In this document: positions 7,136 to 63,737 of the stretch, piece by piece | Position numbering within the stretch: position 1 is the first letter of the stretch | Layout of the letters: each line of letters begins with the position of its first letter | NCBI GenBank assembly: GCA_036507075.1 | Contig: DASXQR010000048.1 | Span: forward strand, 13,697 to 77,696 | DNA length: 64,000 nt | Direction of reading: 5' to 3' | Source of the DNA: Acidobacteriota bacterium | Lineage (GTDB): Bacteria; Acidobacteriota; UBA6911; JACQSX01 | The notes under the pieces: generated by a model | Database searches by the model: none | What the model was told of the DNA's origin: nothing | What the model saw: the letters and a program-made list of their open reading frames with translations, nothing else | Made by a program: the position numbers and the translations under genes

Positions 7136-8293
7136 ATGAAGATCCACGAATATCAGGCCAAGAAGATCCTCAAGGAATTCGGGGTCAACGTTCCCAACAG
7201 CGCCGTCGCCTATAATGCGGATGAAGTATACGAAACCGCGCATCGCTTGGGGGACGTCGTGGCGATCAAGGCGCAGATCCATGCCGGCGGCCGGGGCAAG
7301 GGAGGCGGCGTCAAGATCGCAAAGTCTCCCGAAGAAGCGGAGCGCCTGGCGCGCGCCATGTTCGGCATGAAGCTGGTGACGTACCAGACCGGGCCGCAGG
7401 GGAAGGAAGTGCAGCGGGTCCTGGTTGAGGCCGGGCTGCGCATCAAGAAGGAGTACTACCTCGGAATCGTAATCGATCGATCTTCGCAGCGCGCGGTCTT
7501 CATGGCCAGCAGCGAAGGAGGAGTCGACATTGAGGAAGTAGCCGCCACAAAACCCGAAAAAATTCTGAAAGAGTTCATTGATCCCGCTGTTGGTTTTGCG
7601 GCGTTCCAGGCGCGCAAGCTCGCCTTTGGAATCGGGATCCCTGGCGACGCAATCAACAAGGCGGTCAAGTTGATGCTCGGCCTGTATCGGGCGTTCGAGC
7701 AGAAGGATGCCTCGCTGGCTGAAATCAATCCCCTGGTGTTGACCGAGGAAGGCGACGTTTACGCGCTGGACGCAAAAATGAACTTCGACGACAACGCCCT
7801 TTATCGACATCCGGAACTGCTCGAGCTGCGCGATTTCTCCGAGGAGGACCCGCTGGAGATTCGCGCGTCCCGCTTCGGATTGAATTACATCAAGCTGGAT
7901 GGAACCGTCGGTTGCATGGTCAACGGGGCCGGACTGGCGATGGCGACAATGGACATCATCAAGTATGCGGGAGGGAGCCCGGCTAACTTTCTCGATGTGG
8001 GCGGAGGAGCCAGTCAGGACCAGGTAAAGAATGCCTTCCAGATTCTGCTTTCCGATCCCAACGTGAAGGCGGTGCTGATCAACATCTTCGGCGGCATCAT
8101 GCGCTGCGATATCGTGGCCGGCGGAGTAGTAGAGGCCGTAAAGACGGTGGGTGTCAAAGTGCCTGTGGTGGTTCGCCTGGAAGGCACAAACGTCGAGCAG
8201 GGCCGCGAGATCCTGAAAAACTCCGGATTGAATTTCACGGTGGCCGCCGGGATGCGTGATGCTGCTGAGAAAGTTGTGAAGCTGGCGCGGTGA
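7136..8293 (+). CDS. sucC: Succinyl-CoA synthetase beta subunit
   Basis: [47 protein letters not shown]. Confidence 0.97.
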
Positions 8294-8298
8294 GAGCC

Positions 8299-8510
8299 GG
8301 AAGCGGAAAGCGGAAGGCAGGAGGCAGGAAGCAGGAAGCAGGAAGCAGGAAGCAGGACGCAGGAAGCAGGACGCAGGAAGCAGGAGGCAGGAGGCGGAAG
8401 GCGGGAAGCGGAAAGCAGCAGGAGAAGTGGAATGAGGCAGTTTCGCGCCTTCGCGCCTTCGCGGTGCTAATCACCAACTCGTGACTCGTAACCCGGTAAC
8501 CCGTAACCCG
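8299..8510. repeat. Composite short tandem arrays: ~17 x GGAAGCA-type heptamer, then TTCGCGCC 8-mer, then ACCCGTA/ACTCGTA heptamer
   Basis: Direct reading of the sucC-sucD spacer. Confidence 0.85.
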
Positions 8511-8538
8511 CCGCGCACGGCGGAACACTGGCAAAAGG

Positions 8539-13830: not shown

Positions 13831-14134
13831 CGGGTTTTCGAGTGGGCGGGTTGGCGGGTTACGAGCTGGCGGATTACGGGTTGGCGGGTTACGGGTTGGC
13901 GGGTTACGGGTTTTTGGGTTACGGGTTGCGAGTTGGCGGATTGCAAAATTGGAAAATTGAAAATTACCGTATCAGGATGAGGGACATCCAGTTTTCCATT
14001 TCCTACTTCGTGACCTATTGCACTAACTCGAAATCCTAACCAACTCGGAACCCGATAACCCGGAAACTGAGAACCCGGAACCCGGAACCCGACAACTCGG
14101 AACCCGATAACCCGGAACCCGAAAACCCGGAACC
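13831..14134. repeat. Inverted pair of alternating 7/8-bp arrays (CGGGTTA/CGGGTTGG vs AACCCGG/AACCCGAT)
   Basis: Left arm ~13831-13941 and right arm ~14025-14134, enclosing a smaller AAAATTG/CAGTTTT inverted pair. Confidence 0.8.
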
Positions 14135-14147
14135 ATGGGGTTAAGCG

Positions 14148-15710
14148 ATGAACGAGAGATTACGAGCGGCTTACCTTCTTCTTCTGATAGCTCTCTTGCA
14201 CGTGTTGGTTAATTTCTTCTGGCTGCGCACTGACACGCGCCCCTGGATCTGGGACATGGGCTTTCACGCTCGTGTCGGCCTCGACTACCTGGATTTCCTT
14301 CAGCATCCCTCTGCAGAGAAACTTGCCTTCGCCTTCCGGGAAGGACTGCAATACCCGCCCTTGTATCACTTCATGGAAGGTTTGAGCTACATGCTGGCCG
14401 GCAGAAACGATGACGCTGCGGTTTTTCCCAACTTCCTGTTTTTGGGCCTGATGCTCTGGGCGGTATTTCGAATTGGTGAGAGAGTGGCAGACCCGGACGC
14501 GGGGTTATGGGCGGCCGCCATAACCAGCCTCATTCCAATTATTGCGTGGGTGTCGCGCACGCCGCTGCTGGACTTCTCGCTGGCGGCCATGGTCTGCACG
14601 GCGATCCATTTTCAGTATCAGACGGAAAATTTCGGGCTGCGAAAGCAATCCGTGGTATTCGGCGTGATTTGCGGGCTGGGGATGCTGGTGAAATGGACCT
14701 TCCTGTTTTTCCTGATAGGGCCGGTGATCTACGCTTATTTTGAGCGCCCCACGTGGAGATATCGCGTCTGCGTCTTTAATCTGATGCTGTCGGCCGCCGT
14801 AGCCGCCGCAATTTCAGCAGTCTGGTACCAACCGAAACTGACCTTCCTGTTGTTCAATTACCTGCCCGGCCATTCGGCCGAAGGCGCTGTTGAAGGAGAT
14901 CCTTCCATTTTCTCGCCCCTCTCGTGGGTTTTCTACCTTCAGTTTCTGCTGAGCTACCAGTTGTTTATTCCTCTGGCGCTGCTGCTTGCCCTCGGTGTTT
15001 TCTGGAGCTTTCGCAGAGGCTCGCGCTCTCCCTCTCTGGCGGTGATCTGGGTATGGGCGGTCAGTTCCTGGTTCATCCTCTCGCTGCTGCGAAACAAGGA
15101 CCCTCGTTACACACTGCCGCTGTTGCCGGCCATTGCCATTATTGCCGCCGCCGGATTTGCGGGAGAAGATCCGCTGCGCAGAATTCTAAAATGGCTCACG
15201 CTTGGCGTGGCGCTTGCGCAGTTTGCGGCAATCAGTTTCAACTTCCCGTCGCTGCCCGAAAAGATATCGCTGGGAACATTTCACAAAGGCACGAACACCT
15301 GGGAGTGGCAGGTGTTTTCCAAAACGTATGCCGGGTTTCTCGGTCCTGCCCGCGACGAGGAATGGCCCCTGGAAAGTGTGCTCACTCTCATTGCCGAAAA
15401 GGGAGGAGGAACCTTATACGTGGTGCCGGACCATCCTTATGTGAGTCCCCAGACTTTCCTCTACAAAGCCCGGCTGCAAAACCTTCCGGTGGAAATTCGC
15501 TCCGCGCCGTCTTCAAACGTCACAGGAGCGTTGACAGACTTCTACCTGCTGAAAACGGGCGATCAGGGAGATCTAAAATCTGCCGCGGAAGCGCAGCAAC
15601 TTACCGGCGAGATCCTGAGGAATCGCAAACTGCAGCTGCTGCGCGCCTACTCGCTGCCCGACGGCACCCAGGCGCTCCTGCTGGCTTCCAAGAAGCTGCC
15701 CATCGTTTGA
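14148..15710 (+). CDS. Membrane glycosyltransferase, GT-C fold (ArnT/PMT-like)
   Basis: P.IWDMGFH, YPPLYH, LGMLVKWTF, NKDPRYTLPLLP; multi-TM. Confidence 0.8.
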   Translation: MNERLRAAYLLLLIALLHVLVNFFWLRTDTRPWIWDMGFHARVGLDYLDFLQHPSAEKLAFAFREGLQYPPLYHFMEGLSYMLAGRNDDAAVFPNFLFLGLMLWAVFRIGERVADPDAGLWAAAITSLIPIIAWVSRTPLLDFSLAAMVCTAIHFQYQTENFGLRKQSVVFGVICGLGMLVKWTFLFFLIGPVIYAYFERPTWRYRVCVFNLMLSAAVAAAISAVWYQPKLTFLLFNYLPGHSAEGAVEGDPSIFSPLSWVFYLQFLLSYQLFIPLALLLALGVFWSFRRGSRSPSLAVIWVWAVSSWFILSLLRNKDPRYTLPLLPAIAIIAAAGFAGEDPLRRILKWLTLGVALAQFAAISFNFPSLPEKISLGTFHKGTNTWEWQVFSKTYAGFLGPARDEEWPLESVLTLIAEKGGGTLYVVPDHPYVSPQTFLYKARLQNLPVEIRSAPSSNVTGALTDFYLLKTGDQGDLKSAAEAQQLTGEILRNRKLQLLRAYSLPDGTQALLLASKKLPIV

Positions 15711-16007
15711 ACTAGCCGCCGATTTACACGAATTGACACGGATGAAAGCAGGCCGCCGATCTACGCGAATTACGCTGATTAATATCGGGGTCGAGGGATG
15801 GGCTCAGCCACCACTGTATGTCATTTACGTTGAGCCTGGTCGCCCATCCCTCGACCCCGATATTCTTCCGTGTTAATTCGCGTAAATCGGCGGCCTGCTT
15901 TCATCCGTGTCAATTCGTGTAAACCAGCGGCCCACTTCCATCCATGTCAATTCGCGCAAATCGGCGGCCTGCTTTCATCCGTGTCAATTCGTGTAAATCG
16001 GCGGCCC
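15711..16007. repeat. Large palindromic element: two 37-bp units, a perfect 23-bp stem, then four inverted 37-bp units
   Basis: AATATCGGGGTCGAGGGATGGGC (15781-15803) pairs with 15842-15864; right-hand units start at 15865, 15902, 15939, 15976; left-half homolog at 35922-35999. Confidence 0.85.
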
Positions 16008-16087
16008 GTTCTATTTGAAATCGCAACTGTGCGGCCGGTTACATTGCCTGGGACGGCGAGGATCTACTCTAGATTAACGACAGGGGC

Positions 16088-17420: not shown

Positions 17421-17672
17421 TTCACCACAGAGCTCAAGCGTAGCCGTAAGCCTCAACCACTCAAAAAGCCGAGGACGGCCCCGTGCACGTCAACGATAGA
17501 CGTCAACGACCACGTCAACGCTCACGAAAAAAAAGTCGCAAGTCTGCCTTCTGTTGACCAAGTCTTCAAGCTCTGAATCCTTCGAGCATTTGGACGTACC
17601 TGGTAGACGTGCACGTGGACGTAGACCTTAGACGTAGACGTTGACGTGATCGGTTTTTGTCTTTTCTGAAAT
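17421..17672. repeat. Hexamer (CACGTC/GACGTG) inverted-array cassette
   Basis: Aligns along its length with the reverse complement of 39612-39839. Confidence 0.8.
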
Positions 17673-23266: not shown

Positions 23267-24355
23267 ATGGCCAGAACCACAGAAATTTCATTACTTAGTC
23301 ATAGTTCGGCAACCGGTGATCTATTTATTTCGCGCCTTCGCGCCTTCGCGGTTCCGGCTTTTTTTTTGCTGTCAACTGCCTGTTTCTTGAGGGCTGCAGA
23401 ATCGGGAGCTTTCAGTACTCCTGCCGCTGTTTCTTCGGAGAATCCTACCAGCGCTCAATTCGAGTTTAGAGGAACCGTCGTGCAGCCGAATCAGAAGCCT
23501 TTCGGGAATGTTCTGCCGGTGGTGTTTCTACGCGGCGCAATCACTCCCTTTACTTCCCAAACGCTGGCGGACGGCGCTGGAAAATTCAAGTTCAAGAATC
23601 TCCAGCAGGGTATGTACACGCTGACCGTCGCCATTCCCAATGCCGGCCAGACGCAACAGACCATTGAAGTCGGCCCCAGTGTGGCTGATGCAAAGCGGAT
23701 AGTCCGGAAGACCATCGTCTTTGATTCCAGTTCCGATCGTGAGTCGCATGTGGTGTCGGCGCGCCAATTGTCCGTCCCCGATAACGCGCGCATGCTTTAC
23801 CAGAAAGCGGAGGAGAGGTTAGGAAAACGGGATACACCCGGCGCCATAAAGCTTCTGGAAAGAGCGGTCGAACTCGCGCCTCAGTTTTCTACAGCCTGGA
23901 ATCATCTTGGAACGATTGCTTACCAGACTCAGCGGTATGATCAGGCCGAACAGTATTTCCGTGAGGCCCTCAAGCAGGATCCCGATTCCTATGCTCCTTT
24001 AGTCAACCTGGGAGGTACTTTGCTGGCGAAAGGAAAAGTGGAAGAATCGCTTCAGGTGAATCTCCGGGCGGTCAAGGCCCGGCCCGACGATGCGCTGGGC
24101 CACTCGCAGCTTGGGCAGAGTTATTTTCTGCTGGGACAACTCGACGATGCCGAGACGCAGTTAAAACAGGCCAAGGCGCTCGACCCGATGCATTTTTCGC
24201 TCCCACAACTGCTCCTGACCAAAATCCATCAGGCCAGGGCGGACTACCCTGCAATGATTCGCGAGTTGGAAGAGTTCCTGCGCCTTCATCCCGATTCCGA
24301 CCTGGCGCCACGCATGCGCGAACTGCTGGAGAAGGTCCGACCCTGGGGCCGATGA
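23267..24355 (+). CDS. Carboxypeptidase-regulatory-like domain plus TPR repeat protein
   Basis: GKFKFKNL..G.YTL.V; VS.RQL.VP..A; several TPRs; start uncertain. Confidence 0.8.
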   Translation: MARTTEISLLSHSSATGDLFISRLRAFAVPAFFLLSTACFLRAAESGAFSTPAAVSSENPTSAQFEFRGTVVQPNQKPFGNVLPVVFLRGAITPFTSQTLADGAGKFKFKNLQQGMYTLTVAIPNAGQTQQTIEVGPSVADAKRIVRKTIVFDSSSDRESHVVSARQLSVPDNARMLYQKAEERLGKRDTPGAIKLLERAVELAPQFSTAWNHLGTIAYQTQRYDQAEQYFREALKQDPDSYAPLVNLGGTLLAKGKVEESLQVNLRAVKARPDDALGHSQLGQSYFLLGQLDDAETQLKQAKALDPMHFSLPQLLLTKIHQARADYPAMIRELEEFLRLHPDSDLAPRMRELLEKVRPWGR

Positions 24356-24550
24356 GTCCGTTGTCAGTGGTCCGTTGTCAGTTGTCCGTTGTCCACTGTC
24401 AGTTGTCGAAGGGTAGTAATGAAGCGGGAGCACTGGGGATTACTCGACTACGCGGTAACAACCTGCCACGGACAACGGACCACTGACAACGGACCACGGA
24501 CAAGATTAGAGCAATTTCGCTTTCGCGCCTTCGCGGTGAATTTCTTCTCA
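24356..24550. repeat. Inverted pair of TCCGTTG/TCAGTTG heptamer arrays, followed by a TTCGCGCC 8-mer end
   Basis: Left ~24356-24407, right ~24468-24503; same family at 63576-63737. Confidence 0.85.
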
Positions 24551-29166: not shown

Positions 29167-29375
29167 AAAGTCGAAGGTCGAATCGTCGAAAGTCAAAGGT
29201 CCAAAGTCGAAGGTCGAAGGTCAGCGCAATCATCGGTATGGCGACTGTAGGCAACGGAATGACGGGCCCTGCAGATCTTCTTGGCGATCACGATACAGAT
29301 GGTAATCCCAGGACTTTCGACCTTCGACTTTATGACTTTCGACTTTTTGGATTCGACTTTCAAACTTTCGATTTT
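29167..29375. repeat. Inverted pair of AAGGTCG/AAAGTCG heptamer arrays
   Basis: Left ~29167-29222, right ~29313-29375; single-arm copy at ~9405-9445. Confidence 0.85.
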
Positions 29376-30439: not shown

Positions 30440-30635
30440 CACCACAAAGACACGGCGCAGCAGACCGCAACCGAGTAAAAGCCGTCGACGTCTAAGTGCA
30501 GGTGACACGTCAACGTCTACGTCTACGCTTACGTCACGCTTACGTCGGCGCTAAATAGTATGATTTTGATTGGCCGTCCTCGTGAACGTCGGCCGCGGAC
30601 GTTGACGTGTCACCTGCACGTAGACGTCGACGGCT
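30440..30635. repeat. Hexamer cassette with 38-bp inverted arms, preceded by the CACAAAGA...CCGCAACC motif
   Basis: 30480-30517 vs 30598-30635, one mismatch. Confidence 0.85.
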
Positions 30636-30665
30636 GTCTGCTTTCGTCGGTAGAATTCTACAGGC

Positions 30666-32575: not shown

Positions 32576-32725
32576 CTTAGCGCGGCGAAGCCGCAACCAA
32601 AAGTCAAGGAGAGACGGCCTGAGGGCCGTCTCTCTGCGGCGCCCTGCCAAGCTGAGACGGCCCTCAGGCCGTCTCTCCGCCCCGAATAATTTGCGCAGGC
32701 CGCGAAAATTCTCAGGGTTAGTAGT
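32576..32725. mobile_element. Non-autonomous MITE-like element carrying a REP doublet
   Basis: Flanked by ACAGGGG direct repeats (32569-32575, 32726-32732); second copy at 57541-57664. Confidence 0.7.
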
Positions 32726-39386: not shown

Positions 39387-39578
39387 AGGTCTCCTCTTTT
39401 GATCTGGTAAGTTTACCGGCTAGCTGCCCCGGTGTTCCCAAAAATCGTTTTCAGGCGTCGGGCCCAAATCTAAGGGCGCCTTGACTCGGTAGGCTGCCTT
39501 CACCGCCGAGCCGCCGAGACCGCCGAGGCCGCGCAGAGTTTGCAGCCCAACCTCTGCGAAATCTCAGCGTGCTCTGCG

Positions 39579-39865
39579 TGGCACGGTGGCAACTTCTTGT
39601 TTTTAGACGAGATTTCAGAAGACAAGACCGATCACGTCGACGTTTATCGTCTACGGCCACGTGCACGTCAATGTCCACGACGCACGTCCAAATGCAAGGT
39701 GACAGATTTAGAGCCTAATCATTTTGGTCAACATTGACACGATGCGTTCCAAACTGCGATTTTTTCCTTCGTGAGCGTTGACGTGATCGTTGACGTCTAT
39801 CGTTGACGTGCACGTGCTCGTGGCCGTCCTTGGCTTTTTCTTTGGTTGCGGCTCTTCCGGACTGT
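39579..39865. mobile_element. Hexamer-array cassette with a possible four-helix-bundle gene remnant, inserted into the right arm of a 9-bp array
   Basis: Homologous to 17463-17672; minus strand 39708-39752 reads LERIVSMLTKMIRL-stop; separates ctctgcg (39578) from the array terminus gcggcggtga (~39866). Confidence 0.55.
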
Positions 39866-39987
39866 GCGGCGGTGATATAACGTGGCCGCCTTTTGAGAGC
39901 AAAGTCACAACTTATTGAGTGCCTTTAGGTTAAGTAATACAGTGAAAGGTCAGGTCCCGCAGGGGGCATTTCCGGAAATAACTCAAC

Positions 39988-42900
39988 ATGAACAGACAAC
40001 TGACAAGGGTCTCTCTCCTTCTCTTTGGCTCCGGGATGTGCGCGCTCATTTATCAGACCACCTGGCTGCGCGAATTCAGACTGATCTTTGGCGCTTCCAC
40101 GGCCGCATCTGCGGCAGTGCTGGCGATCTTTATGGGCGGCCTCGGATGGGGAAGCATGGTGCTGGGAAAGCGCTCCGATCGTCGCGCCAATGCTCTGAAT
40201 TTCTACGCAACACTCGAGATGGGAATTGCCTTCACCGCCGCGATTACGCCCCTGCTGCTGTGGGTGACTCATCTGGTGTATGTCAGCCTGGGGGGATCTC
40301 TTGTTCTCGGCGCAGGCGCCGCAACTTTGCTGCGACTTGCGCTGGCATCTCTTGTGTTGTGCGTTCCCACTTTTCTGATGGGAGGGACTCTCCCGGCGGC
40401 GGCCAGGGCGGTGGAAACCAATTCCGATCTGAGCAGGCGGAACCTCGCGCTCCTGTACGGGACAAACACCCTGGGAGCGGTGGCCGGCGCCGCCATTTCC
40501 ACTTTTTTTCTTCTGGAGCTTTACGGCAATAGAAAAACTCTCTGGCTGGCCTGCCTGCTGAATCTTTTGGTGGCGCTCACAGCCCGCAGCCTGGCGCGTT
40601 CCATCGTGATCTCAGGGGAGGAAAGTTCAGCAATCCTTCCTTTCACGCCGGAAGCGGAAATCGCTGTGGCGACACCATCGGGCACACATCCCGCAGCCAG
40701 TCTCCCGGCAACATTCGCCGTCATCGCCGCCGCAATCACAGGTTTCGTGTTTTTGCTGATGGAGTTGGTCTGGTATCGAATGCTCGGTCCATTGCTGGGC
40801 GGCTCGACATTCACGTTCGGTGTCATCCTCGCTCTCGCCCTGCTGGGAGTGGGCCTGGGCGGCGCGGCCTACGCTTTTTTTGGAAGCACCCGATCCCCGT
40901 CCCTGAATTCCTTCGCGCTCACTTGCGGGCTGGAGGCTTTGTTTGTCGGAATTCCCTACGCTCTCGGCGATCGCATTGCGCTGCTTGCCGTTCTTCTTCG
41001 CCCCTTCGGTTCAGTCGGCTTCCATGGCTATGTGCTGGCGTGGACCGGGGTAGCCTGCGTGGTTGTGCTGCCGGCCGCTTTGGTCGCCGGCATTCAGTTT
41101 CCGATGCTGATTGCGCTGCTGGGAAAAGGCAGGGAAAGGGTCGGACGCGATGTAGGGCTGGCATACACTTCGAATACGCTGGGCGCCATTGCCGGCTCGC
41201 TGGCCGGAGGCTTCGGTCTGTTGTCGCTTCTCGGCGCTCCGGGCACATGGCGGCTGGTGGTGCTGATACTCACCGGATTGTGTCTGGTCTCACTGGGTCT
41301 GAGCGGTGTGGCAAAGTCTGCATGGCGAAGGTCGGCACCCGTCTTCTGCCTGGCAGTGATCTCGGCCTGCACGATCTTCACGGTCGGTCCGACGGCTGTT
41401 TGGCGTCACAGCCAGATCGGCGCCGGCAGAGCCGAAGGATTTACTACCAGTCTCAACAACATTCGAGATTGGATGAGCTACCGGCGACGCTCTCTTTACT
41501 GGGAAAGGGACGGGGTGGAGAGCAGCGTGGCGGTCACGCGGAACGAAGGTCACACCTTTGTTGTAAATGGAAAGGTGGACGGGCACGCCAGATTGGACGC
41601 CGGCACTCAGGTGATGCTGGGCCTGGTGGGAGCAATTCTCCATCCGGCGCCCAAAAGCGCGTTGGTTATCGGGTTGGGCACGGGCAGTACCGCCGGATGG
41701 CTGGGGGCTGTCCCTTCCATAGAGCGCGTGGACGTGGTGGAGTTGGAGCCGGCGATCCTCAAAGTAGCCGCCGAATGTTCCTCTGTCAACGCGAACGCGA
41801 TGTCGAATCCCAAGGTTCACGTGCTGATCGGCGACGGTCGAGAGACTCTGCTTACCACACCCGCGCGCTATGACTTGATTGCCTCGGAGCCGTCAAACCC
41901 TTACCGCGCCGGAATCGCCAGCCTGTTTACACAGGAATTCTACCGCTCCGCATCCCGGCGCCTCTCCGATGACGGACTATTCCTGCAGTGGCTGCAGGCT
42001 TACGAAGTTGACGGTGAGACGATTCGGACCGTTTATGCCACCCTGTCGTCGGTCTTTCCGGTAGTTGAAACCTTTCAGACGACGTACGCGGACCTGCTGC
42101 TTGTCGGTTCGATGAAGCCCGTTTCGTACAATACGTCCATTCTGGCCGGCCGGCTGGGACAGGAGCCATTTCAGACCGCAGTCAGAGATACATGGCGCGT
42201 GTCGGGTGTCGAAGGCTTCCTGGCGCATTATCTAGCCAATTCGGCATTCGCATCAGCCATCGCCCACCAGCACAACACGCTCATCAACACCGATGACCGC
42301 ACGCCGATCGAGTTCGGCTTTGCGCGCAGCGTGGGGAAGCTCGGCATCTTCAACGTGGATCATGTCGCCAGGCTGGCCCGATCTCGATCCGAACACAGGC
42401 CGGAAAACCTTCAGGGTCAGGTCGACTGGACCAGCGTCGACGATCAGCGCGCTTCCATAAGAACGGAGGGATGGGTCGTTCCGCTGTTGCAGCCGTTCTT
42501 CACCCGCGAACAGCGCATTCGCACGGAAGCACAAATCCGATATGTCAGAGAAGATTTCGCCAGTGCGCTGCTGCTGTGGAAATCACAGCCCAAAGAGCCT
42601 GCTACTTTGACCGAGCTGACGATGGTGGCCGAGAGCCTGGCCGACAATGGCGACCCGGAGGCACTGAAACTGATCGAAAGGATACACGCCACGCACCCGA
42701 CAGAAGCGGAGGCGCTTTTGGGGCGTCTACTCTTGCGTCAGAAGCGGCTGGAAGAAGCTGCCATCGTTCTGGAATCCGCGTTCGTGCGTTATCGCAACGA
42801 CCCCTGGCCCCCGCCCTCATTGATGGAGCGCGCGCTGGACGTGGCAACGACGGTGGCCACGCTGGACCCGGGCAAACGACTCGCTCTCAGACTGCACGAT

Positions 42901-43245: not shown

Positions 43246-43525
43246 ATTGAGATGTCGACAAATCGCCTTCACCGCAGAGGCGCCGAGGACGCCAAAGTCA
43301 GCGCAGAGTTCTGACGGATTTCTCTGCGGACACTCGGCGATCTTTGCGTCTTTGCGGTGAAAAACGTCGCCGCCTCCGTCCTTTACCGGCATTTTTGCCT
43401 GGCTCCATAAAATTTTTTTCGCAGATTTCCCCACACCCCGGTTATGTCCTTTTGAACCATGGCTTGATTTCAGCGGCAACGTTCCGTGCCCCTGTAAAAT
43501 GCCATGAAACCATCGGAGCCAGGTT

Positions 43526-44410
43526 ATGAATAAACAGGAATTGCTGAAATTGGCCGACAATCCCGCCCTTATCGAAGGCATTTACAACTATTGCGACCGC
43601 TGGTGCGAGCGTTGCCCGCTGACGCCGCGGTGTCTGGTTTTTGCCATGGAATCCGCGGACAAAGAGCGTGCCGCCGCTGCAGGGGAAGAAGAGCAACTCG
43701 TTCATCAGCTTGAGGAATCTTTACGCCTGACAACAGAATTGCTCGCTGACTTTCAGAAGGAACAGGAAATGCAATTCAATTCAGAAGATAGCGCCGCAGA
43801 AACCGACGCAGAGGCGCACGTATTCTCCAAGCTTGAGGCAGAGGAACTGTCCGAGGCCCGAAAAATCGCACCCATAGCCGTGCGCGCGGCGAGGCATTAC
43901 ATCGACCTGGTCAATGACTGGTTTGATTCCCACGGTTCGCTATTTGAGGAAAAAGAGCGATCGTTGAATGCCGGAGTTCCTGTCGTCTCTGACGCGACAA
44001 ATCTTCAACATGAGGTCGACCAGATCACGGATGCTGTGGAAGTAATCCGCTGGTACCAGCATCAGATCTTCGTGAAATTAATGCGGGCGTCCAGAAACCT
44101 GGATGAGCTCGCAGAAGAATGTAAACAGACAAGGCCCGACAGCATTCTCCTGGATGCCGTAAAGCGGGACGTAAACGGCTCAGCCAAGGTTGCGTTAATC
44201 GGGGTGCAACGCTCCACTTCCGCATGGCTGTCTCTGCGCGGGCATTTGACCGATCAGGCTGACAGCATTCTTCACGTATTGATTCATCTGGAAAAACTGC
44301 GACGCAACTTGCTTTTGGCGTTTCCCGACGCGGAGACGTTCCTCAGGCCCGGATTTGATGAAATTGAAAAGGTTGAACCGACAGGGCCCGAAGAGCGCAA
44401 AAGGGCCTAA
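43526..44410 (+). CDS. Hypothetical acidic helical protein with an N-terminal Cys cluster
   Basis: GIYNYCDRWCERCPLTPRC; D.NGSAKVALI...RS; FP.A..F.RPGFDE. Confidence 0.75.
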   Translation: MNKQELLKLADNPALIEGIYNYCDRWCERCPLTPRCLVFAMESADKERAAAAGEEEQLVHQLEESLRLTTELLADFQKEQEMQFNSEDSAAETDAEAHVFSKLEAEELSEARKIAPIAVRAARHYIDLVNDWFDSHGSLFEEKERSLNAGVPVVSDATNLQHEVDQITDAVEVIRWYQHQIFVKLMRASRNLDELAEECKQTRPDSILLDAVKRDVNGSAKVALIGVQRSTSAWLSLRGHLTDQADSILHVLIHLEKLRRNLLLAFPDAETFLRPGFDEIEKVEPTGPEERKRA

Positions 44411-57540: not shown

Positions 57541-57664
57541 CTTAGCGCGGCGAAGCCGCAACCAAAAGTCAAGGAGGTGTCCTGCCAAGCTGAGACGGCC
57601 CTCAGGCCGTCTCTCCGCTCCCGAATAATTTGCGCAGGCCGCGAAAATTCTCATGGTTAGTAGT
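57541..57664. mobile_element. Second copy of the MITE-like element (one REP unit)
   Basis: Flanked by ACAGAGG direct repeats (57534-57540, 57665-57671); ends match 32576-32725. Confidence 0.7.
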
Positions 57665-59930: not shown

Positions 59931-59956
59931 GTCGAAAAATCAGAGTTCGCGCTCAA

Positions 59957-60056
59957 AATGCGGATTTCGGAATGCGGAATGCGGAATAGGGACTGGTCTT
60001 GGACTCGGCCTCGCAGAATTAAGCTTGGCATATTCCGCATTCCGCATTCCGCATTC
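59957..60056. repeat. Inverted pair of AATGCGG heptamer arrays
   Basis: 59957-59987 and 60032-60056. Confidence 0.85.
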
Positions 60057-60080
60057 GGAAGTGTGTGCTCAAAACAGCTA

Positions 60081-63545: not shown

Positions 63546-63575
63546 TTTCGGTAATTGTGGGGAATGCGCGATTGC

Positions 63576-63737
63576 CAGTTGTCCGTTGTCCGTTGTCAGT
63601 GGTCCGTTGTCAGTGGTCCGTGGTCAGTGGTTCGTTGAGAGCGGTAAGACTACGCATAACTAACCGTAAAACCGACGAGAAACCTGACAAGTCGACCACT
63701 GACAACGGACAACTGACCACTGACAACGGACAACTGA
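63576..63737. repeat. Inverted pair of TCCGTTG/TCAGTGG heptamer arrays
   Basis: Left ~63576-63636, right ~63695-63737. Confidence 0.85.

Follow-up and report, generated by a model that had tools for sequence, protein, structure and literature searches.

The window, a stretch of 64,000 nucleotides from an Acidobacteriota bacterium, carries on its minus strand a 288-bp inserted element (39578-39865). This unit is an internally deleted four-helix-bundle cassette enclosed by carrier ends, and we consider it probable that it was placed in trans by an enzyme that nicks and joins single strands. The movement in trans is best read as the work of the carrier's enzyme rather than of the product of the lost four-helix gene. 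What is new here is that the gutted cassette is itself a passenger in a carrier, in a nested history with exact ends.

Architecture of the inserted element

Excision of the element restores a host repeat, a hairpin with 9-mer arms. The larger part of this hairpin, located by reconstruction, lies at 39499-39577 and belongs to a family with at least 120 empty copies. The host terminus beyond the element occupies 39866-39875, where 8 of 10 nucleotides are identical to its own inverted far terminus. The range previously proposed, 39579-39865, agrees with the measured element to within one base. Read along the minus strand, the element begins with the left end of the carrier, or leader (39844-39865), which consists of an nnAG tetranucleotide, a short hairpin, and a conserved tail, and is common to unrelated payloads. 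The leader is followed by the left hexamer-repeat arm of the cassette (39769-39823), homologous to the arm 5' of an intact gene, and by a remnant of the upstream box of the parent promoter (39754-39765), recognized by alignment with longer copies (class A, below) and intact parents. The last 13-14 codons and the stop codon of a TIGR02436/PF05635 gene, a pseudogene remnant identified by profile search and nucleotide identity, occupy 39708-39752. The right hexamer-repeat arm (39628-39689) is inverted relative to the left arm, and the right end of the carrier (39578-39604), which by eye contains a short imperfect palindrome, is common to heptamer and other payloads. The downstream promoter box, the ribosome-binding site, the start codon, and approximately 98 codons are deleted in this copy. 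The inverted hexamer arms are internal and start approximately 40-50 nt inside the element ends. Folding of the element strand gives a z of -2.98, a value that the arms alone would also give. The element is intergenic, with a peptidase S9 gene on one side and a spermidine-synthase-domain gene on the other.

A second copy is located on the plus strand at 17434-17653; its neighbors are a thioredoxin-domain gene on one side and, on the other, a 2-oxoacid dehydrogenase E2 gene. It comprises a leader (17434-17458), two arms (17480-17527 and 17592-17653), a promoter-box remnant (17528-17542), and, out of frame, what is left of approximately the last 7 codons (17552-17576); its right carrier end was not recognized. 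The identity between the two copies is 80-83%, in which 80% is the mean column identity. The sequence-only reading had described a more decayed copy of the whole cassette. The shared blocks that it listed are present, but this copy represents a sister deletion class (class C), sharing a junction of its own with that class (7 copies). The window also contains other gene-less arrays, mostly inverted pairs, with 7-mer, 15-mer, or 37-mer units, at 8282-8512, 13832-14134, 15707-16016, 24346-24514, 29173-29361, 59946-60073, and 63557-63737.

Identity of the gene remnant

The minus strand at 39708-39752 translates as LERIVSMLTKMIRL followed by a stop codon and is flanked by CACGTC-type and GACGTG-type hexamer runs; translation confirms the 14-codon reading proposed between the inverted arms. 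A profile of 12 intact proteins, built with all cassette copies excluded, placed this fragment at the top of the 2283 that six-frame translation of the window gives, with E 4.0e-4 against 4.6 for the runner-up, which bears out the suggested resemblance to the C-terminal helix of TIGR02436 proteins. In the genome-wide search with the same profile, the fragment scored E 0.04 among 229,655 fragments, and 13 remnant copies were found at E below 5. The earlier suggestion of an HMM check held for this clade profile but not for the stock TIGR02436 and PF05635 models, which gave no match to the remnant on this contig because it is too short.

A gene-bearing cassette with the same arms, which had been proposed as a check, exists on another contig of the same genome and also in relatives. 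The gene at G000:C37:4143-4481 is intact and encodes 113 residues; it lies between hexamer arms, shares its left flank with the cassette, and encodes a C-terminus that agrees with the peptide. Its product aligns over the full TIGR02436 and PF05635 models (64.4 bits against a cut-off of 24, and 67.1 against 33.8, respectively), and PDB 2GSC, an uncharacterized protein, is the one solved structure related to it at an E below 0.5. The alignment score between the window element and the C37 locus is 178.7, compared with 77.6 +/- 7.6 (maximum 101) for 200 shuffles. Within the 42 nt of the remnant, 36 are identical to the intact gene of locus L073 and 31 to the C37 gene, indicating that the C37 gene is a cousin and not the direct parent. 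These sequence comparisons identify 39708-39752 as the 3' end of a TIGR02436 four-helix gene.

The genome contains seven TIGR02436 loci (9 matches), each adjoined by short-repeat runs of its own type, by eye mostly as inverted arms. Three of the seven, on contigs C73, C231, and C17, are frameshifted or truncated. A scan of the genome collection yielded 14 loci, in which those of the C37 clade have hexamer-type runs and two Paludibacteraceae loci have other repeats; the hexamer arms accompany the C37 gene clade across phyla. A gene of this clade was matched at E 1e-10 in 4 of 40 relatives. Inspection by eye of loci L010-L019 of the clade revealed no leader. Extra partial copies lie beside several intact genes: a gene tail with an arm occurs once in L010 (1900-2029) and twice in tandem in L011 (1930-2220), and L073 contains at 100-300 an arm, the promoter, and the first 9 codons. 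Another gutted four-helix cassette, apparently of an 8-mer-arm type, is located near position 21432 of contig C82 on the minus strand; by eye, it keeps an intact promoter box, approximately 15 N-terminal codons, and 14 C-terminal codons.

Copying of deleted cassettes

The dispersed cassette family, searched with a profile from 11 copies, comprises 157 non-overlapping loci, 32 of them at 100 bits or more, and many of the weaker loci represent a sister hexamer family. By pattern, the copies fall into deletion-junction classes A (11 copies), B (5), C (7), D (2), and E (5), with one extra copy each of classes A, C, and D recognized by eye. In class A copies, the two promoter boxes and the ribosome-binding site are retained, and the gene resumes at approximately codon 96. 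Class B, to which the window copy belongs, lost a further 39 nt relative to class A, and class E lacks any gene tail. By eye, short microhomologies mark the junctions of classes A and B. Besides the window copy, class B includes three full copies, which share 91-93% identity with it and have different flanks. In the tree, these four copies group with a support of 0.62 and the inner three of them with 0.94; a fifth, rearranged class B copy falls elsewhere.

Since identical junctions occur at unlinked loci with different flanks, copying followed gene loss. The proposal of an internally deleted cassette copied after losing its gene was therefore correct, and amplification extended to four or more further junction classes. 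A first deletion, between the ribosome-binding site and approximately codon 96, probably occurred at a microhomology and gave class A. A second microhomology deletion would then have removed the rest of the promoter, giving class B and the window copy, and each shortened form may subsequently have been copied as a passenger. The survival of the gene tail can be attributed to its position adjoining the right arm, the sole reason we propose.

It is hardly credible that the 14 codons were retained as a peptide or a needed signal. Sixteen copies keep the tail, most of them in frame, and independent deletions of four-helix genes in relatives also keep the last 7 to 57 codons. On the other hand, class B has neither a start codon nor a ribosome-binding site, and class E and other copies spread without the tail. 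The 16 class A and B copies show 6 synonymous and 16 non-synonymous variants, with no synonymous excess (neutral share 0.21; P 0.29 for excess), together with two indels that shift the frame in 2 of the 16 copies, one new stop, and one lost stop. No selection for a protein is evident in the remnant, which is a by-product rather than a product.

A route through a reverse-transcribed RNA copy, in which the four-helix protein would act as a helper in the manner of Avd, is likewise highly improbable. The kinship of the four-helix family to the Avd protein of diversity-generating retroelements, together with the extra copies of the gene 3' end and arm beside the intact genes in L010 and L011, would speak for such a route. 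However, L073 has an extra 5' copy instead, and the dispersed copies retain DNA upstream of the promoter, which would be absent from its transcript, and occur in either orientation to the neighboring genes. No reverse transcriptase was found beside the C37 gene, the two matches in the genome being on other contigs (C146 and C119).

Ends of the element and its insertion site

The leader, defined as the tetranucleotide and hairpin, occurs 123 times in the genome, with payload classes of 31, 24, 21, 19, and 4 members and 24 unclassified cases, and 57 carrier right ends were detected. The leader and right end also frame payloads unrelated to the four-helix gene, and different modules are chained head-to-tail at the same insertion spot. 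Since the element ends lie outside the arms and are common to unrelated payloads, the hexamer arms are not supported as the definition of the mobile unit. No right end was recognized for 87 of 132 leaders. In 70 of the 123 leader hairpins, the loop consists of three bases, G-N-A, closed by C-G; such loops are unusually stable in single-stranded DNA. At 32577-32725 and 57542-57664 of the window (plus strand), the same leader precedes a REP-like paired-hairpin payload; the right end there is of a second type, and the host position of the insertion is unchanged. A sister-family hexamer hairpin lies behind a leader at about 30440-30640, with a spacer unlike the four-helix remnant. A further element apparently interrupts the hexamer arms at one fixed spot, leaving half cassettes with a common foreign end on contigs C69, C210, C213, C103, C37, C51, C166, C24, C144, and C190.

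The start of the 9-mer-arm hairpin repeat, a family with at least 120 empty members, lies upstream of the leader. Excision of 39578-39865 yields a hairpin that can be aligned over its full length, minus 3 nt, to the empty paralogue at G000:C145:6641, and the reconstruction needs no duplicated bases. Contigs of sequencing run X1 diverge from the window sequence at 39578, from where they run on into an empty hairpin. Another empty host hairpin, with flanking bases common to the window's host, is present at G000:C67:1180-1310; it lies upstream of a paralogue (70% identity) of the gene at 39988 in the window, but in the opposite orientation. Thirty elements have both ends. Twenty-seven follow a C, and AC or GC comes directly after the element in all 30, a consensus that the search patterns partly build in, and 3 of 30 repeat the first 4 nt after the right end. 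The tetranucleotide ends in AG in 29 of 30, an ending favored by the parsing rule, and its first two bases vary. The far host terminus was found in 10 elements and matches the left terminus of the same locus at 10/10 nt in nine and at 8/10 in the window copy (1 in 20,000 by permutation, a test independent of the consensus in the search patterns). A far host arm within 150 nt was detected in only 9 of 31 framed elements, against a background of 3.9%. The element is inserted at one fixed position in the 9-mer hairpin repeat without target duplication.

These boundaries bear on two further explanations. According to the first, no dedicated enzyme is involved, and template switching or gene conversion among short repeats, aided by RecA and ComM on incoming single-stranded transforming DNA, produced the copies. 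The junctions do lie within short repeat units that are shared; modules are often chimeric, inverted, or arranged in tandem; no enzyme emerged from the searches made; and recA, comM, and dprA share the promoter box described below. We nevertheless regard this explanation as somewhat unlikely. A homology-driven process is expected to leave ragged ends, but modules that differ from the host in their first bases all enter at one position, both host ends are locus-specific, and the same position holds new payloads in four other genomes.

The second explanation takes the hexamer arms as the ends and has the gutted cassettes copied in trans by the intact four-helix protein, alone or together with a host partner. 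It accords with the presence of an intact gene in the genome, with the inverted repeat arms that each four-helix gene there has of its own, and with the hexamer arms that track the gene clade across phyla, including L010-L019, in which no leader is visible by eye. The insertion boundaries, however, lie outside the arms and are common to non-hexamer payloads, leaders occur in two relatives, G004 and G005, in which the query used found no gene of the clade, and the only solved relative found for the protein (PDB 2GSC) is uncharacterized. This makes the protein a distinctly unlikely mover of the gutted copies, although the evidence is compatible with a role that it may have had in the first movement of the cassette between lineages. 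The arrays are linked to the protein family, as the sequence-only reading had proposed, through the intact C37 gene with the same arms, but neither the arms as the mobile unit nor the four-helix protein as the mover was upheld.

Distribution among relatives, reads, and viral contigs

Leaders number 105 in genome G001, 48 in G003, 16 in G004, and 76 in G005, and are absent from G002 (reversed control, 0-1). At the 30 loci examined in relatives, the leader mostly occupies the host position used in this genome and heads other payloads. Across these four relatives, the same leader and position surround new payloads, including intact and independently deleted four-helix genes, and the leader flanks the intact four-helix genes of G001 and G003. 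With the query used, the C37 gene clade was not found in the leader-bearing G004 (77% complete) and G005 (92%). G002 (93% complete) has no leader, no C37-clade gene, and only two partial Y1 matches, possibly reflecting loss of the system. The strict leader pattern had no match in 400 other genomes of the phylum, a sample without G001-G004; it also missed G005.

No empty allele was seen at the orthologous site; a 1.4-kb query matched only repeats and one neighboring gene, the relatives being too distant. In contigs from four of the eight listed runs, none bridges the element and no joint skips it. Since X1 and X2 may be the source sample, the run contigs do not bear on polymorphism. Viral contigs gave no match to the leader and 19 to the right end, none of which came with the element; the best of them by profile, at E 0.01, fell within a phage gene.

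A putative promoter motif common to competence genes

A two-box motif precedes the four-helix genes. A matrix derived from five four-helix sites gave 36 genome matches above 23 bits, some double-counted at shifted offsets, against 1 in shuffled DNA. From the top 61 motif matches, 17 downstream ORFs not already known were picked and annotated. Ten match recA, ssb, comEA, comEC, comF, dprA, comM/YifB, radC, recQ, or a minor pilin gene, several below the curated cut-off; the rest comprise two matches to Y1 transposases, one weak TPR match, and four ORFs without a match. The box is also present before most intact Y1 and GxxExxY genes. The nature of these downstream genes suggests that the motif is a promoter active in competence. 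Since the parent gene and the REP-type Y1 genes share this box with DNA-uptake genes, movement of the element might, speculatively, take place during competence. Within the window, the two-box motif at 43412-43447 precedes a 294-residue ORF (43526-44410, plus strand) without a Pfam match, a candidate member of the regulon.

Possible chemistry and the search for the enzyme

The unlike hairpin ends, the single position, and the lack of duplication point to single-strand chemistry of the IS200/IS605 or REP type (PMC6006769, PMC8266576, PMC3119063). By analogy with IS200/IS605 and REP-associated HUH enzymes, the enzyme would read the terminal hairpins on single-stranded DNA. The insertion junction observed here is C|A or C|G, and one REP transposase cuts C|A as well as C|T (PMC8266576). 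The leader is absent from the flanks of the 12 Y1 matches in this genome and, in relatives, from the 30 Y1 loci inspected out of 52 matches in incomplete genomes, and among these 12 and 30 loci no cognate RAYT gene flanked by the same repeat was found. A RAYT flank in G003 (L131) contains a similar hairpin without the conserved tail. Near position 37931 of contig C212 (plus strand), a leader module runs by eye into the 3' end, approximately 30 codons, of a gene for a REP-type Y1 transposase. The search of this genome gave no full-length carrier, and the one long framed element (1 of 132) was judged to be a chance pairing across host genes. A Rep_trans gene (PF02486) was not found over the cut-off in any of five genomes, the single weak match being, by eye, in an apparent outer-membrane efflux gene. 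Guide sequences in IS608 pair with the cut sites by defined rules, and the carrier ends do not cleanly fit these guide-to-cut pairing rules.

Comparison with known elements

Mobile insertion cassettes carry passenger DNA between reusable ends. The present element resembles them in this respect, and resembles MITEs, as defined in PMC3119063, in being an internally deleted derivative amplified after gene loss. It differs from MITEs in its internal inverted arms, its two unlike ends, and its lack of target duplication, 4 nt being repeated in only 3 of 30 cases. The PATEs (palindrome-associated transposable elements) and SMR-A elements of Haloquadratum walsbyi, described in the same report, are short and gene-less, without terminal inverted repeats or target duplication, and have palindromes near their ends. 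Our element likewise lacks terminal inverted repeats and duplication and has near-terminal palindromes, the right one assigned by eye. Some PATEs keep C-terminal coding remnants, and SMR-A elements target palindromes of other elements (PMC3119063). PATE ends, however, match IS605-type transposons, and no such partner was found here among the Y1 loci examined; in addition, the present carrier holds varied passengers, including the four-helix cassette, and targets a 9-mer tandem-arm hairpin.

REP, BIME, and REPIN sequences with TnpA-REP (RAYT) enzymes share with the carrier mosaic tandem arrays and a tetranucleotide before a short hairpin, which ends in AG here under a parsing rule that favors this ending (PMC8266576, PMC6006769, PMC3733652). 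The C|A junction is compatible with one characterized enzyme of this type, and the genome has many Y1 genes. In contrast to the GTAG of REP sequences, the tetranucleotide here varies, no examined Y1 gene is flanked by the carrier hairpin, and the element has two distinct ends and a cargo. CGTC-tagged REPs were rejected as a match for the arms, being single 8-9 bp stem-loops rather than tandem hexamer arms (PMC3733652).

Intervening sequences with an S23p ORF in the 23S rRNA genes of Coxiella and Leptospira encode the same protein family, have tandem repeats beside the gene and hairpin-forming arms, and tend to lose the ORF by deletion (PMC4990558). The cassettes here differ in having hexamer arms, a competence-type promoter box, and dozens of dispersed gutted copies, and the window element does not lie within an rRNA gene. 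The origin of ORF-bearing intervening sequences is described as open in the same source.

The element works like a PATE with passengers; it has neither the terminal repeats and target duplication of a MITE, nor, among the Y1 loci examined, a cognate RAYT, nor a location in rRNA. The full-text literature searched, which includes few subscription papers and was judged from listings and the beginnings of abstracts, contained no four-helix cassettes with repeat arms outside rRNA, no competence link, and no such carrier. Four-helix genes are not mentioned, under the terms searched, in the paper on Beggiatoaceae heptamers (PMC4679880), and paired short-repeat arrays in Geobacter were catalogued as probable regulator binding sites (PMC2700814). 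Repeat families are also listed in the supplements of PMC2700814 and PMC6006769, which may be relevant to the claim of novelty.

Implications

This one element preserves the intact gene, the stepwise deletions, the amplification of each step, the exact ends, and the empty target sites. Its history separates the cargo from the carrier and defines single-stranded substrates for direct tests of the enzyme and of the role of the four-helix protein. Tentatively, and with rather less than even confidence, we propose an undescribed repeat-targeting single-strand system that acts as a general shuttle for whole or gutted four-helix, REP-like, and heptamer cassettes, with genes timed to competence. If this proposal is true, the shuttle plants cassettes through one pair of ends at one site in a third repeat, and timing to competence, when single-stranded DNA is plentiful, would explain the short-repeat hairpins that fill the intergenic gaps of such genomes.
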